64,000 bases of DNA from Ruminococcus sp. (GTDB lineage Bacteria > Bacillota > Clostridia > Oscillospirales > Ruminococcaceae), in the NCBI GenBank assembly GCA_017516465.1, contig JAFXCR010000011.1:2553-66552 (forward strand). Direction: 5' to 3'. Numbering within the stretch: the first letter of the stretch is position 1; every line of letters begins with the position of its first letter. Position numbers and translations under genes: made by a program. This document shows positions 24,788 through 28,982 of this stretch, piece after piece. The notes beneath the pieces were generated by a model. That model made no database searches, was not told the DNA's origin, and saw only the letters and a program-made list of their open reading frames with translations.

Positions 24788-24864
24788 GTCCCAATAGCTC
24801 AGTAGGATAGAGCGGCTGCCTCCTAAGCAGCAGGCCGGAGGTTCGACTCCTCTTTGGGACGCCA
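24788..24864 (+). tRNA. tRNA-Arg (anticodon CCT)
   Basis: 77 nt; acceptor stem gtcccaa/ttgggac, anticodon arm gctgc-ctCCTaa-gcagc, GGTTCGACTCC T-loop, encoded CCA. Confidence 0.97.
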
Positions 24865-24993: not shown

Positions 24994-26016
24994 TTATGGA
25001 TTTAATGTAATTGATTCATTTGCGAATTCATCGCTCATAAAATCATCAGCATTATATGCGTGTAATTTGAATTCGATTTCTTCTATTGTTTCAATACCAT
25101 TTTTCTCTAATGTTGTATCAGAGAATGACATGGAGCTGAATGAACATTTTCCAGCTGAAACAGTTTCGGCAAAGAAGGGATCACACATAATATTATTTAC
25201 AGATGCTTCATCAACGCTGAACATTACATCATTGTTTGTTTTATTGATTAAGAAAAGATTAACAGTATAGCCCCATAAATCATCTTCTTCATATCCTGTT
25301 GCAATAGCGGTGATATAATCGTTGTCGATTAATATATTATCAGATGCCTGTGCTTCTCTTACAAATGTTGAAGCTTTTTCTTCGCCGTAAGGATAGACAT
25401 GAACAGTTTCTTCCGCAACCGGATCAGCTAACCAGTCATCATTGTCATAGACGCGGAAGCTGAGTTCAATATCCGTATAATCGCCTATGCCATTTTCATC
25501 AAGTGTATCAGTTGTGAATGAAATTTCTTCATTGCTTTTCTTTCCCGATGCAACTTCTGATGCGAAAAAAGGATCACATTGAACGCCGTTGATTGAAGCA
25601 CTGTCAACGGAAAACATATATGTTTTATCAGAGGATTTGTTTTCAAGCGTAGTCTTGAGACTATATCCCCACAAATTATCAGGGTCAATATCAGTAATTT
25701 TTATTGTACATTCAGCATTGTCGACTGCTATAACTTCTGAAAAAGATATCTTATTGTTTTCTTTTTTGCTTGAGTTGTCTTTTTCCTTGTCCTTTTCTTC
25801 TTTTGAGTCTTCCGAAACGTTGCCATCTTCAGATGAGGTATTTGCATCTGTGCTGTCTTTTTTTTCATCATCTTTCTTTTTGTTGTCCTGAGAATCCTCA
25901 CTTTCTTCATGCGAAGCTTTGGTATCCTTGCTGCTTTTTTCCTTTGATTGTTCAGCACTGCAACCAGTAAGGGATAAAAGCATAAGAGCAAAGAGCAGGG
26001 CAGAGATTTTTTTCAT
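24994..26016 (-). CDS. Lipoprotein 1: lipobox, charged linker and two tandem homologous beta-rich domains
   Basis: MKKISALLFALMLLSLTGC lipobox, GGAGGT RBS; repeated motif LWGY...MFSVD.AS.N...CDPFFA. Confidence 0.88.
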   Translation of the reverse strand: MKKISALLFALMLLSLTGCSAEQSKEKSSKDTKASHEESEDSQDNKKKDDEKKDSTDANTSSEDGNVSEDSKEEKDKEKDNSSKKENNKISFSEVIAVDNAECTIKITDIDPDNLWGYSLKTTLENKSSDKTYMFSVDSASINGVQCDPFFASEVASGKKSNEEISFTTDTLDENGIGDYTDIELSFRVYDNDDWLADPVAEETVHVYPYGEEKASTFVREAQASDNILIDNDYITAIATGYEEDDLWGYTVNLFLINKTNNDVMFSVDEASVNNIMCDPFFAETVSAGKCSFSSMSFSDTTLEKNGIETIEEIEFKLHAYNADDFMSDEFANESITLNP

Positions 26017-26244
26017 TTTTATACCTCCTGTAAATAAAAAAGTGTGTGCAACCGAAGTTACACACACCTAAAACGTAACTCCGATTGTCGCCAAACAAAT
26101 CTTAAATACAAAAGGAATACCTAATTGCAATTCAAGTGGAATTACGTTTTTAACGTATACAAAAGAATTGCAATTATACATGGGTATACCATCCATGTAT
26201 ATCTGAATGACTTACCTCTGCATTAATATTAAGATTTGTTTGAC
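26017..26244 (-). promoter_or_regulatory. Structured ~228-nt 5' leader with terminator before the RBS (attenuator candidate), copy A
   Basis: Hairpin gtgtgtgtaac-TTCG-gttgcacacac followed by TTTTTTATTT, 4 nt before the RBS; several long-range inverted repeats. Confidence 0.65.
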
Positions 26245-26250
26245 AAATCT

Positions 26251-26279
26251 ATTATATCATATTTATAAATGAATTGCAA
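26251..26279 (-). promoter_or_regulatory. sigma-A promoter, copy A
   Basis: TTGCAA-17bp-TATAAT with extended TG. Confidence 0.7.
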
Positions 26280-26438
26280 TTATTTTATGAAAAAATCAGT
26301 TTCAGGTAAATATAATATTGATATAAAAACAGGCGTATTCAATCAAGAGATTATACACGCCTGTCGCTCATTTTTATTAATTACTTATTACTGTCTGAAA
26401 AAAGTGTATGTATGTCGCCGGTATATATGGCGGTTTTG

Positions 26439-26475
26439 TTATATCTGATTGTCTGGGGAGCTTATTGCTTCGACG
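26439..26475 (-). pseudogene. Duplicated 3' end of rmuC (VEAISSPDNQI-stop)
   Basis: Matches 27759-27795 with two substitutions, both synonymous. Confidence 0.85.
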
Positions 26476-26559: not shown

Positions 26560-27339
26560 CTACCAGCCGTACTGCGGATCATCCGGAGGATCCGTTACAG
26601 GTACAGGCGGGATATACTCCTCCGTAGGAAGAGGTGCAGGCGGATCAGTCGCTGGCGGGATAGGAGGAAGAGTTGCAGGCGGATCAGTCGCTGGCGGCAG
26701 GGTAGGAGCCTCTGTCGGAGGAACTGTAACAACAGGAACTGCTGTGGTAGTTTCAACAGGAACGGTAGTAGTAGCCGATGTTGAAACGGGTTCAGTAGTA
26801 GCAACAGCCGAAGTTGTCTGTGAAACAGCCGAAGTTGATGGCATTTCACCGTCCTCAGGAATGTAGTATACAGTCAGCTTTTTGCCTTCCTTGTTGCTGA
26901 AAATGTCACCGGGATAGATTTTCTTGCCCTGAACCTGAAGCTCAATGATAGAATTAGGCTTTCCGTAGTAGCCGTTTGAAGCAATGAACTGGTAGTTAAA
27001 GTCAGAGATTCCGGCTTTTTCAAGACGATTCTTGTATTCAGAAACAGTGCAGTCTGCGAAATCAGGAATCTGTGCTTCTTCCTTACCCTTGCTCTTAACC
27101 TTGATAACAGTCCCCTTTGAGATCATAGTTCCTGCCTCGATGTAATTTTCTTCAGATGAGGTAGCTGAATCTGTACTGTCTTTTTCTTCATCATCTTTCT
27201 TTTTGTTGTCCTGAGAGTCCCCACTTTCTTCATGTGAAACTTTGGTATCCTTGCTGCTTTTTTCCTTTGATTGTTCAGCGCTGCAGCCAGTAAGGAATAA
27301 AAGCGTAAGAGCAAAGAGCAGGGCAGAGATTTTTTTCAT
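26560..27339 (-). CDS. Lipoprotein 2: same N-terminus as lipoprotein 1 fused to a PASTA-like domain and Thr/Pro-rich tail
   Basis: First ~63 aa nearly identical to 24994-26016; KSKGKEEAQIPDFADCTVSEYKNRLEKAGI is PASTA-like; PATDPP repeats. Confidence 0.82.
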   Translation of the reverse strand: MKKISALLFALTLLFLTGCSAEQSKEKSSKDTKVSHEESGDSQDNKKKDDEEKDSTDSATSSEENYIEAGTMISKGTVIKVKSKGKEEAQIPDFADCTVSEYKNRLEKAGISDFNYQFIASNGYYGKPNSIIELQVQGKKIYPGDIFSNKEGKKLTVYYIPEDGEMPSTSAVSQTTSAVATTEPVSTSATTTVPVETTTAVPVVTVPPTEAPTLPPATDPPATLPPIPPATDPPAPLPTEEYIPPVPVTDPPDDPQYGW

Positions 27340-27567
27340 TTTTATACCTCCTGTAAATAAAAAAGTGTGTGGAACCGAAGTTACACACACCTAAAACGTA
27401 ACTCCGATTGTCGCCAAACAAATCATAAATACAAAAGGAATACCTAATTGCAATTCAAGTGGAATTACGTTTTTAACGTATACAAAAGAATTGCAATTAT
27501 ACATGGGTATACCATCCATGTGAATCCGAATGAATACCTCTGTATTAATAATAAAGATTTGTTTGGC
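27340..27567 (-). promoter_or_regulatory. Structured 5' leader with terminator, copy B
   Basis: Only 2 differences from copy A over the ~180 nt nearest the start codon. Confidence 0.65.
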
Positions 27568-27573
27568 AAATTT

Positions 27574-27602
27574 ATTATATCATGCTTATAAATGAAATGC
27601 AA
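27574..27602 (-). promoter_or_regulatory. sigma-A promoter, copy B
   Basis: TTGCAT-17bp-TATAAT with extended TG. Confidence 0.65.
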
Positions 27603-27647
27603 GTATTTTTTCGAAAAATAAGTATCAGGTAAATATAATATTGATAT

Positions 27648-27686
27648 AAAAACAGGCGTATTCAATCAAAAAATTTCATACGCCTG
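27648..27686 (-). terminator. Terminator after rmuC (also present in copy A at about 26326-26364)
   Basis: caggcgta...tacgcctg stem plus T tract on the minus strand. Confidence 0.65.
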
Positions 27687-27758
27687 CTGTTTATTTTTAT
27701 TAATTGCTTTTTATTGTCTGAAAAATATATGTCTGCTGCCGGTATATTGTTGTTTTTA

Positions 27759-28982
27759 TTATATCTGATTGTCGGGGGAGCTTATCGCTTCGACGGAGCT
27801 GAGTTTTCTGTTAATCTGTCTTGTTCGGACTCCCACTAATTTTTCCAGATCATCCTCAGCTTTTTTGAGATGCTTTTGTGTATCTTCAAGTGCTTTCTGA
27901 AAGGTAAGGAATTCTGATTTTACGGCACCGAGTATTTCCCATACCTGACTGCTTTTCTTCTGTATTGCAAGCGTCTGGAATCCCATTTGCAGGGAGTTTA
28001 GCATAGCCGCCATTGTTGAAGGTCCGCAGACGTTGATGTTGTAGTCACGCTGTAAAACTTCTATCATTCCGCTGTTTACGACCTCAGCGTAAAGTCCCTC
28101 GAATGGAAGGAACATAATACCGAAATTCGTGGTATATGGCGGTTCAACGTATTTTTCGTGAATATCCTTTGCACATTTTTTCAGAACTGTGTGGAGATTC
28201 TTTTTTGCTGCTGTTACATCTTCGCTGCTGCCTGATTCATAAGCGTTCTGAAGAGCAGCGTATGTATCTCCGGGGAATTTTGAATCTATGGGCAGATAGA
28301 CGCAGTTTTCACCGTTTCCCGGAAGTCTTACTGCAAATTCTACACGATTCGCACTTTGAGGAATTGTAGCAATATCGCAGTCGTATTGTTCCGGTGCAAG
28401 AATTTCTCTCAGAATAGCACCAAGCTGGATTTCACCGAGAATACCACGATTCTTGACATTTGAAAGTACTTTTTTCAGATCACCGACGCCCGAAGCGATA
28501 TTCTGCATTTCGCCAAGTCCTTTATAGACCTGTTCAAGACGTTCGCCGACAAGTTTGAAGGATTCGTTCATTTTGTTTTCGAGCTTTTCATTTACCGTAG
28601 CCTGTATGGATTCAAGCTTTCTGCTGTTTTCCTCCTGAAGTCCGGTAAGATGTCTTGTCAGGGAGGAACGTATTGCTTCGAGCTTCATTTCGTTGTTGGC
28701 TTCAAGAGTTTTGAAACGGTTTTCGAGAACACTCAGCTGATTTCCGACCGACTCGCCGGAAATTTTCTGTGCCGATGTCAGCATATCACTCATTGCTTTT
28801 ATGCTGTTGTTTATACTTGATGAAACTTCTTCACGAAGCTGTCTGCCGGAATTCTCAGTATCTTTTTTCAGAGCTTCAAGCTGAGGTCTGATATCAGTGG
28901 TGTTTGTTCTTCTGAGTGCAGCGAGGATAAGCAGCATCAGGAAAATAAGAATAATTTCGATAATGAGTAAAACGATATCCAT
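27759..28982 (-). CDS. rmuC: DNA recombination protein RmuC
   Basis: N-terminal TM helix and coiled coil, KNRGILGEIQL, LPIDSKFP, FGIMFLPFEGLY, GPST. Confidence 0.93.
   Translation of the reverse strand: MDIVLLIIEIILIFLMLLILAALRRTNTTDIRPQLEALKKDTENSGRQLREEVSSSINNSIKAMSDMLTSAQKISGESVGNQLSVLENRFKTLEANNEMKLEAIRSSLTRHLTGLQEENSRKLESIQATVNEKLENKMNESFKLVGERLEQVYKGLGEMQNIASGVGDLKKVLSNVKNRGILGEIQLGAILREILAPEQYDCDIATIPQSANRVEFAVRLPGNGENCVYLPIDSKFPGDTYAALQNAYESGSSEDVTAAKKNLHTVLKKCAKDIHEKYVEPPYTTNFGIMFLPFEGLYAEVVNSGMIEVLQRDYNINVCGPSTMAAMLNSLQMGFQTLAIQKKSSQVWEILGAVKSEFLTFQKALEDTQKHLKKAEDDLEKLVGVRTRQINRKLSSVEAISSPDNQI

Follow-up and report, generated by a model that had tools for sequence, protein, structure and literature searches.

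The window, a stretch of 64,000 nucleotides from Ruminococcus sp. (GenBank assembly GCA_017516465.1, contig JAFXCR010000011.1, positions 2,553 to 66,552 of the forward strand), carries on its minus strand two copies of a structured leader RNA from an undescribed Clostridial family. Each copy probably acts in cis as a transcription-attenuation leader and would work as a three-layer switch of terminator, antiterminator and anti-antiterminator. A cis-regulatory leader with alternative helices and a terminator had been proposed in an earlier note on this DNA, and that proposal holds in its central points. An antiterminator (AT) was found in addition; it shares bases with the terminator (T), and both covary across the family.

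Architecture of the window leader

All elements listed in the earlier note were found on the minus strand, where it had placed them; all window features given below are on this strand. The promoter of copy A (26251..26279) comprises a TTGCAA -35 element, a 17-nt spacer and an extended -10 element, TGaTATAAT, and gave 10 of 12 matches plus the TG in a promoter scan. G26244 is the predicted +1 and also the first base matched by R1, a covariance model built from 69 full-length members of the family, whose full match to copy A (26031..26244) runs from the +1 to the end of the terminator U-tract with 133.3 bits and E = 2.8e-30. The minimum free energy (MFE) of the 228-nt fold is -71.4 kcal/mol versus -41.8 ± 4.0 kcal/mol for shuffled sequences (z = -7.35), and none of 200 shuffles equalled the MFE of the leader; the fold is not due to chance.

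Helix P1, formed by the strands that had been called A and A', pairs a 5' strand at 26229..26244 over 16 bp with a 3' strand at 26090..26105, the latter assigned from the fold and from family covariation. At the P2 position lies a local hairpin, atacatgg/ccatgtat (26176..26200), with 8 pairs in copy A and 6 in copy B. The P3 stem (26123..26175), taken from the MFE fold, consists of strands C (26165-26175) and C' (26123-26133) paired over 11 bp, and encloses an apical region bearing segment B, AAAAACGUAAUUCC (26138..26151). Segment B', GGAGUUACGUUUU (26070..26082), is the complement and partner of B and is separated from P1 in copy A by the linker GACAAUCGG. The linker and the 5' part of B' together make up the antiterminator 5' strand, CAAUCGGAGUUACG (26074..26087), whose 14-bp partner is the antiterminator 3' strand, UGUAACUUCGGUUG (26049..26062), comprising the distal 5' arm of T, its loop and the first bases of its 3' arm.

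The intrinsic terminator T (26036..26068, hairpin 26068-26041), located by a terminator scan, has a 12-13-bp stem, a UUCG loop and a U6 run, the stem-loop being followed directly by the U tract. A Shine-Dalgarno (SD) sequence, GGAGG (26028-26024), and an ATG (26016) stand 3' of the copy A terminator. The U tract had been placed 4 nt before GGAGGT; the U6 run in fact ends 7 nt before GGAGG. Duplex energies in copy A are -18.1 kcal/mol for T, -17.3 kcal/mol for B:B' and -14.7 kcal/mol for AT. Strand specificity, claimed in the earlier note from G-U pairs that work only on the minus strand, was borne out by the model, with scores of 50.7-197 bits for sense family members versus 25-43 bits for antisense.

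Covariation across family members

Pairs were counted in a model-based alignment of 90 members (A6), using column shuffling and slid partner columns as controls. With the reservation that shuffle controls overstate significance because related sequences are not independent, P1 was 97.7% paired versus 76.9% after shuffling (maximum 78.9%), with double-sided change at 12 of 13 pairs (cells, 203 versus 42); T was 96.1% paired versus 85.7% (maximum 87.5%), with double-sided change at all 11 of its 11 pairs (cells, 100 versus 10.7); B:B' was 94.8% paired versus 92.0% (maximum 92.9%), with double-sided change at 9 of 15 pairs (cells, 35 versus 11.9); and AT was 89.8% paired versus 86.6% (maximum 87.5%), with double-sided change at 10 of 15 pairs (cells, 46 versus 7.9). 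Sliding the partner column lowered P1, T, B:B' and AT alike to at most 58% paired. Many distinct types of compensatory pair are present, and the qualitative picture is clear despite the kinship of the sequences.

P3 and an extension of P1 (P1b) are too variable in length for column counts and were therefore assessed by a swap test of strands between members. Cognate P3 strands paired at -17.7 kcal/mol versus -7.3 kcal/mol for swapped strands, with 68 distinct strands among 69 sequences, and P1b was partner-specific in the same way (-12.5 versus -6.8 kcal/mol). The homolog covariation that had been named as a check on the leader is thus found for P1, P3, B:B' and T, and additionally for AT. It was not found in the 90 members for the P2 hairpin (60% paired versus 57% shuffled), which is also missing from the shorter size class, or for P3b, a local apical hairpin that would sequester B (74.9% versus 73.5%). 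P2 and P3b were rejected as conserved helices, their pairing being near shuffle level.

Predicted switch of terminator, antiterminator and anti-antiterminator

The earlier note had A-A' and C-C' crossing B-B', so that they would be either mutually exclusive or pseudoknotted. The pseudoknot stands and the mutual exclusion does not: B is apical in P3 and B' lies 3' of P1, so the B:B' pairing is a loop-to-tail pseudoknot compatible with both P1 and P3. The actual competitor of T is the antiterminator, absent from that note, in which CAAUCGGAGUUACG pairs with UGUAACUUCGGUUG (14 bp, -14.7 kcal/mol in copy A). Since B' overlaps the AT 5' strand, B:B' is assigned the part of anti-antiterminator. The AT pairing also explains why the loop CUUCGGUUG is conserved far above what a terminator needs.

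In 8 of 13 divergent members, the 3' tail has the AT hairpin as its MFE or near-MFE structure, and compensatory AT variants occur, among them CAAAUGGGG/UUCCGUUUG and AGAGCUA/UAGCUUU. Family means are -15.6 kcal/mol for AT and -16.0 kcal/mol for T, which are nearly isoenergetic, and -17.7 kcal/mol for B:B'; T is the more stable of the first two in 46 of the 90 members. The leader thus has the features by which an attenuation leader is recognised, namely an antiterminator that shares bases with the terminator, conservation of both, and an upstream segment (B) that can sequester the AT 5' strand. In folds of the short size class, as read by eye, an upstream UUUUUACC offers a local partner for the GGUAAAAA part of B, and in folds of the long class a GAAUUUG strand is available for pairing with B, so that local sequestration of B appears possible in both classes.

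The elements suggest the following sequence of events. A strong sigma-A-type promoter would start the RNA at the first base of P1, and P1 and P3 would together make a rod with segment B exposed in its apical region. T, just before the ribosome-binding site (RBS) of the cargo gene, would stop transcription, and the AT pairing would prevent T from forming. The B:B' pseudoknot, of 13-15 bp, would sequester the AT 5' strand and favour T. On thermodynamic grounds, the default state would be B:B' with T, and hence termination; read-through would presumably require B and B' to stay apart for the short interval before the AT 3' strand has been made, either through a factor bound to the conserved apical region or because a local hairpin traps B kinetically. 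Given the stability of B:B', termination might also be constitutive, with the element only damping expression. The transcription start site, premature termination and read-through at the leader are predictions.

The two copies and their lipoprotein genes

The observation that the leader is present twice was confirmed: copy B (27354..27567; 131 bits with R1; 95% identity to copy A across the 244-nt query) lies 1323 nt upstream of copy A, and a search with R1 found no further copies in the window's genome. The two copies sit in a tandem segmental duplication. A recount of their differences agreed exactly with the numbers previously given: 2 of the proximal 179 leader positions differ, as do 13 of the 191 shared coding positions; elsewhere, the copies differ at 34 positions in the 201 nt upstream of the -35 element and at 9 in the 5' 49 nt of the leader. 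Divergence is thus 1.1% in the leader core versus 6.8% in the adjacent coding DNA, the core being about 6 times more conserved than the shared coding stretch. That stretch carries 5 synonymous and 7 nonsynonymous codon changes and therefore seems to be evolving almost neutrally. The copy difference T26243C does turn a P1 U-G pair into C-G, as had been pointed out, and a G-to-C change in the terminator 3' arm of copy B leaves both AT (-12.7 kcal/mol) and T (-13.4 kcal/mol) less stable there.

The copy A cargo ORF (24994..26028 including the SD, ATG at 26016) encodes a 340-aa lipoprotein with no Pfam match, and the copy B cargo ORF (26560..27339) a 259-aa lipoprotein with no Pfam match in its mature part. 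Only the first ~63 codons are common to both, and the mature parts are unrelated. Homologs of the mature domain of the copy A lipoprotein (69-74% aa identity) were found in four other genomes, all of them behind this leader. In those four genomes the leader has 78-88% nt identity versus 70-74% for the coding DNA, and so is at least as conserved. As judged from these sequences, the association of leader and lipoprotein is not random.

Distribution of the family

BLAST matches of the leader in other families of the same order were limited to its 3' third. The flanks of every match show the whole architecture, with the promoter, both P1 strands, an apical GGUAAAAACGCAAAUUCC-like segment between them, the linker, B' and a terminator with a CUUCGG loop. 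Of 401 genomes sampled from the order, 112 have the 3' core, and these span 23 of 30 families. A degenerate pattern gave at least 120 matching stretches in named genomes, and its carriers among the matches listed were Oscillospiraceae, Acutalibacteraceae, Ruminococcaceae, Faecousia and other 'Eubacteriales/Clostridia' MAGs. Those MAGs, again among the matches listed, came from human, ruminant and rabbit gut. Model R1 matched 40 of 150 genomes drawn evenly across the class, including many families outside the order, with at least 14 copies in a genome at the upper end (15 candidates per genome were scored, which makes this number a floor).

Scanning the 64-kb window against Rfam 15 gave only a tRNA above its gathering threshold. 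Nothing sensible was found for the 501-nt region of the leader at E <= 10 (best score 21.7 bits, threshold 60), and the element was unmatched at E <= 0.1 in 11 homolog loci. The earlier statement that no known riboswitch was recognised therefore agrees with the covariance-model scan of Rfam 15, which gives no family for the window copy or for its homologs. The family was not found by literature searches or by term look-up in two large surveys, whose thousands of unnamed candidates may include it. The leader is a member of a large Clostridia RNA family outside Rfam 15.

Recent gene conversion, which the earlier note had raised as another source of the similarity between copies A and B, is unnecessary as a sole cause, because the same core is kept across many Clostridia families. 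This bears also on the wider view that the unit is a repeated mobile or duplicated DNA element without RNA-level function, in which P1 would be terminal inverted repeats or the similarity a gene-conversion tract. Such an element would account for the multiple copies, their patchy spread, their frequent position at contig ends and the tandem duplication around the window copies, but it is very improbable, because the core is conserved across families far past any conversion tract, both G-U pairing and model scores depend on the strand, five different helices show compensatory changes, and the inverted repeat includes neither the promoter nor the terminator, which stand at fixed distances from it. 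A link to phages was tested and ruled out by a single match in 2.9 million viral contigs, a count that likewise argues against a mobile element.

Transcription units and downstream genes

Among the 90 members, 83 have a -10 element with at least 5 of 6 matches, and the gap from its end to the first model position is 6 nt in 68 members and 7 nt in 14; the TG extension is present in 76, a recognisable -35 element in 60 and a terminal U-run of at least 5 in all 90. The gene counted as next was the first ORF on the same strand that has an SD and encodes at least 40 aa, and 109 instances could be scored. In about 70 of these, 9-25 nt separate the U-tract from the start of the next ORF, and in about 98 the start lies within 90 nt; about 11 units have no ORF until more than 100 nt away, and a few have none at all. 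This fixed spacing of promoter, leader, terminator and ORF is the arrangement of a 5' leader.

Complete promoter-leader-terminator units with their own promoters also occur in tandem with no ORF between them (loci L200 and L006), and one locus (L223) has a triple leader array followed by one small ORF. Tandem units are compatible with a riboswitch-like sharpening of the response, or with a decoy or trans role for an abundant terminated RNA, and orphan and tandem units together fit an additional or alternative trans role.

Taken to its limit, a trans role would make the element primarily a stand-alone multicopy RNA of about 215 nt, a trans-acting sRNA or factor decoy, whose downstream genes are incidental or weakly co-transcribed. 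Each unit does have its own strong promoter and terminator, the tandem units are complete, the remote and orphan units have no close cargo, and a 5'-terminal helix would stabilise the RNA. A covarying antiterminator, on the other hand, makes no sense in a pure sRNA, most units have the RBS of a co-oriented ORF within 9-25 nt after the U-tract, and one lipoprotein family keeps its association with the leader across genomes. The leader units do not show the lack of a consistent co-oriented downstream ORF that would mark a stand-alone sRNA. No extended complement to B or B' was found elsewhere in the window's genome, where near matches were at chance level only, and Hfq is missing from 3 of 5 leader-rich genomes. 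This explanation is accordingly considered quite unlikely, and the cis-acting attenuation leader is retained as the preferred reading.

The cargo is very diverse. Matches to 61 Pfam families were obtained for 92 cargo ORFs, and many ORFs had no match. The counts include zinc-ribbon (8), DUF6809 (4) and BspA-type LRR (3) proteins, and further types are LiaF-like, XRE HTH, SHOCT, DUF4234, SLH and DUF4352. About one third of the cargo ORFs are of 100 aa or less, and an N-terminal signal, lipobox, zinc-ribbon or TM pattern was seen in 45 of 99. There is no metabolic theme among the 61 families.

Comparison with known systems

The order of three mutually exclusive helices proposed for the leader is that of the S-box (SAM-I) and similar Firmicute platforms, in which a sensing domain likewise holds the strand that otherwise forms the antiterminator and the terminator stands just before the RBS. 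The leader differs from the S-box in its anti-antiterminator, which is a 13-15-bp pseudoknot between a loop and the 3' tail instead of the short aptamer helix P1, and in having no SAM-I aptamer, no Rfam match and cargo tied to no pathway. With the ZTP/pfl and fluoride/crcB riboswitches it shares a long-range pseudoknot whose 3' strand overlaps the expression platform and decides the fate of the terminator. In those riboswitches the pseudoknot competes with the terminator itself and ligand gives ON, whereas here it would compete with the antiterminator, which is the opposite wiring; the RNA is also much larger and rod-shaped, and matches neither family.

The c-di-GMP-I and c-di-GMP-II riboswitches of Clostridia are similarly multicopy and at times tandem, and precede a wide variety of surface, adhesin and hypothetical genes, but the leader has no sequence or structure match to RF01051 or RF01786. 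T-box leaders, whose effector is a macromolecule (tRNA) and not a metabolite, are alike in being multicopy RNAs of about 200 nt with a long stem that presents a recognition element, followed by a competing antiterminator and terminator; the leader, however, has no T-box sequence, specifier-loop features or RF00230 match, and its cargo does not consist of aminoacyl-tRNA synthetase or amino-acid genes. In protein-dependent attenuators (trp/TRAP, pyr/PyrR, BglG/LicT RAT and EutV-ANTAR) a trans binder decides between antiterminator and terminator. None of the binding motifs of the TRAP, PyrR, LicT RAT and EutV-ANTAR systems is present in the leader, and ANTAR proteins are missing from 3 of 5 leader-rich genomes. 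By these comparisons the leader belongs to no family catalogued in Rfam 15, and its platform is of a kind already known from Firmicute riboswitches.

Candidate triggers

Of the ways in which such a leader could be controlled, a trans-acting binder that chooses between antiterminator and terminator is judged most likely. One specific form of this, which is offered tentatively and may well be wrong, is a regulon of 2 to at least 14 genes per genome for surface, membrane and small regulatory proteins across gut and rumen Clostridia, which would be turned on when an undiscovered trans factor or a new signal recognises the conserved apical segment B and blocks B:B', and in which orphan and tandem units would be decoys that titrate the factor.

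A small-molecule OFF riboswitch would depart from the attenuation-leader reading solely in trigger and sign: the rod and B:B' would form an aptamer, and a ubiquitous metabolite or ion would stabilise B:B', so that AT is blocked and T forms. The three-layer logic is that of S-box-type riboswitches, the B:B' pseudoknot covaries, the family is multicopy with a global-looking regulon, and some riboswitches also have tandem leaders. Complementarity among B, B', AT and T, however, covers nearly all conserved nucleotides and leaves no obvious pocket, the P2 element is missing in the short class, B:B' at about -17.7 kcal/mol should need no ligand, and the cargo has no metabolic theme. The OFF riboswitch is rated as unlikely, although by a smaller degree than the stand-alone sRNA or the DNA element.

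The cargo resembles that of c-di-GMP riboswitches, and c-di-GMP was tested on that account. GGDEF (PF00990) is missing in 8 of the 40 leader-positive genomes (G104, G486, G519, G531, G536, G548, G549 and G569), a rate of 20% versus 19% for the whole 150-genome sample. Most of these carriers are 94-100% complete with at most 7 copies, and several are 96-99% complete with 5-7 copies. Canonical c-di-GMP-I elements were found in 4 of 5 copy-rich genomes checked. As a trigger, and equally as the ligand of an OFF riboswitch, c-di-GMP was rejected on the carriers without GGDEF and on the coexistence of canonical c-di-GMP-I riboswitches.

Among the five leader-rich genomes, CsrA was absent from all five and Hfq and ANTAR proteins from three each, and none of these proteins was retained as a general effector, since they are missing from leader-rich genomes. 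The possibility that another RNA of the window's genome pairs with B or B' in trans was also rejected, the near matches being at chance level.

Significance

The finding accounts for the near-identical 5' module of two adjacent lipoprotein genes with unrelated mature domains. About one quarter of the sampled genomes across the class carry the leader. Should the switch prove real, one shared RNA device would govern many accessory genes, including those for cell-surface proteins, membrane proteins and small regulators, in a sizeable share of gut and rumen Clostridia. The family would also offer a compact, modular promoter-leader-terminator cassette for engineering bacteria that are hard to manipulate. 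The trigger, once found, would reveal a new global regulatory input in dominant organisms of the mammalian gut, such as a novel RNA-binding regulator or riboswitch ligand, or a kinetic sensor.

Tandem units and size classes of the leader

Complete promoter-leader-terminator units were found head to tail, two or three in succession and with no intervening ORF, at three homologous leader loci in other genomes, namely L223 (positions 169-838, corresponding to G518:C6:111018-111687), L200 (1312-1678) and L006 (1514-1887). Each tandem unit carries its own promoter, composed of a TTGACA-like -35 element and a TGnTAnAAT -10 element.

Leaders of a short size class, including those at L073, L074, L076 and L010, measure about 160-190 nt and lack the small local hairpin P2. 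Within this class, the GGUAAAAA portion of B, the segment in the apical region of P3 that is complementary to B', can pair locally with a UUUUUACC-like run upstream; this putative local sequestor of B is different from that of the long class.

Matches to other RNA elements occur in leader-carrying genomes. In a leader-rich genome, three tandem matches to the c-di-GMP-I riboswitch (57-69 bits) lie within 460 nt (G493:C29:21489-21944, minus strand). At L007, a weak match to Gut-1 RNA (RF01706; 2742-2823, plus strand; 30.7 bits versus a gathering score of 50, E = 0.026) is located approximately 1 kb from the leader copy.

Cargo genes and duplication in the window

Among the 109 scorable leaders with an assessed downstream ORF, at least 7 precede a protein with the conserved motif ...ELTPG.P..CLGNG..GFEC.CDECDY.... 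These cargo ORFs lie downstream of the leaders at L086, L107, L108, L109, L115, L143 and L148, and encode 52-76 aa in six cases and 140 aa at L148.

In the window, the copy A lipoprotein P0001 (24994-26016, minus strand) gave no match in a Pfam search. Its mature part consists of two internal repeats of ~115-120 aa each (residues ~96-211 and ~221-340), which cross-match homologs at 37-41% identity (tblastn). Its gene is adjoined on the downstream side by a convergent tRNA gene (24788-24861, plus strand; RF00005, 68.2 bits). The copy B lipoprotein P0002 (26560-27339, minus strand) has a Pro/Thr-rich, low-complexity C-terminal third with repeats of the PPATDPPA type, and this composition suggests an extended cell-surface linker.

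The two genes share a tandem segmental duplication (25826-26475 and 27149-27795) that spans a terminator, the promoter, the leader and ~63 lipoprotein codons. Past its end the ORFs are unrelated, with 81 differences counted over the following 126 nt. The duplicated segment looks like a constant 5' module joined to differing mature domains.
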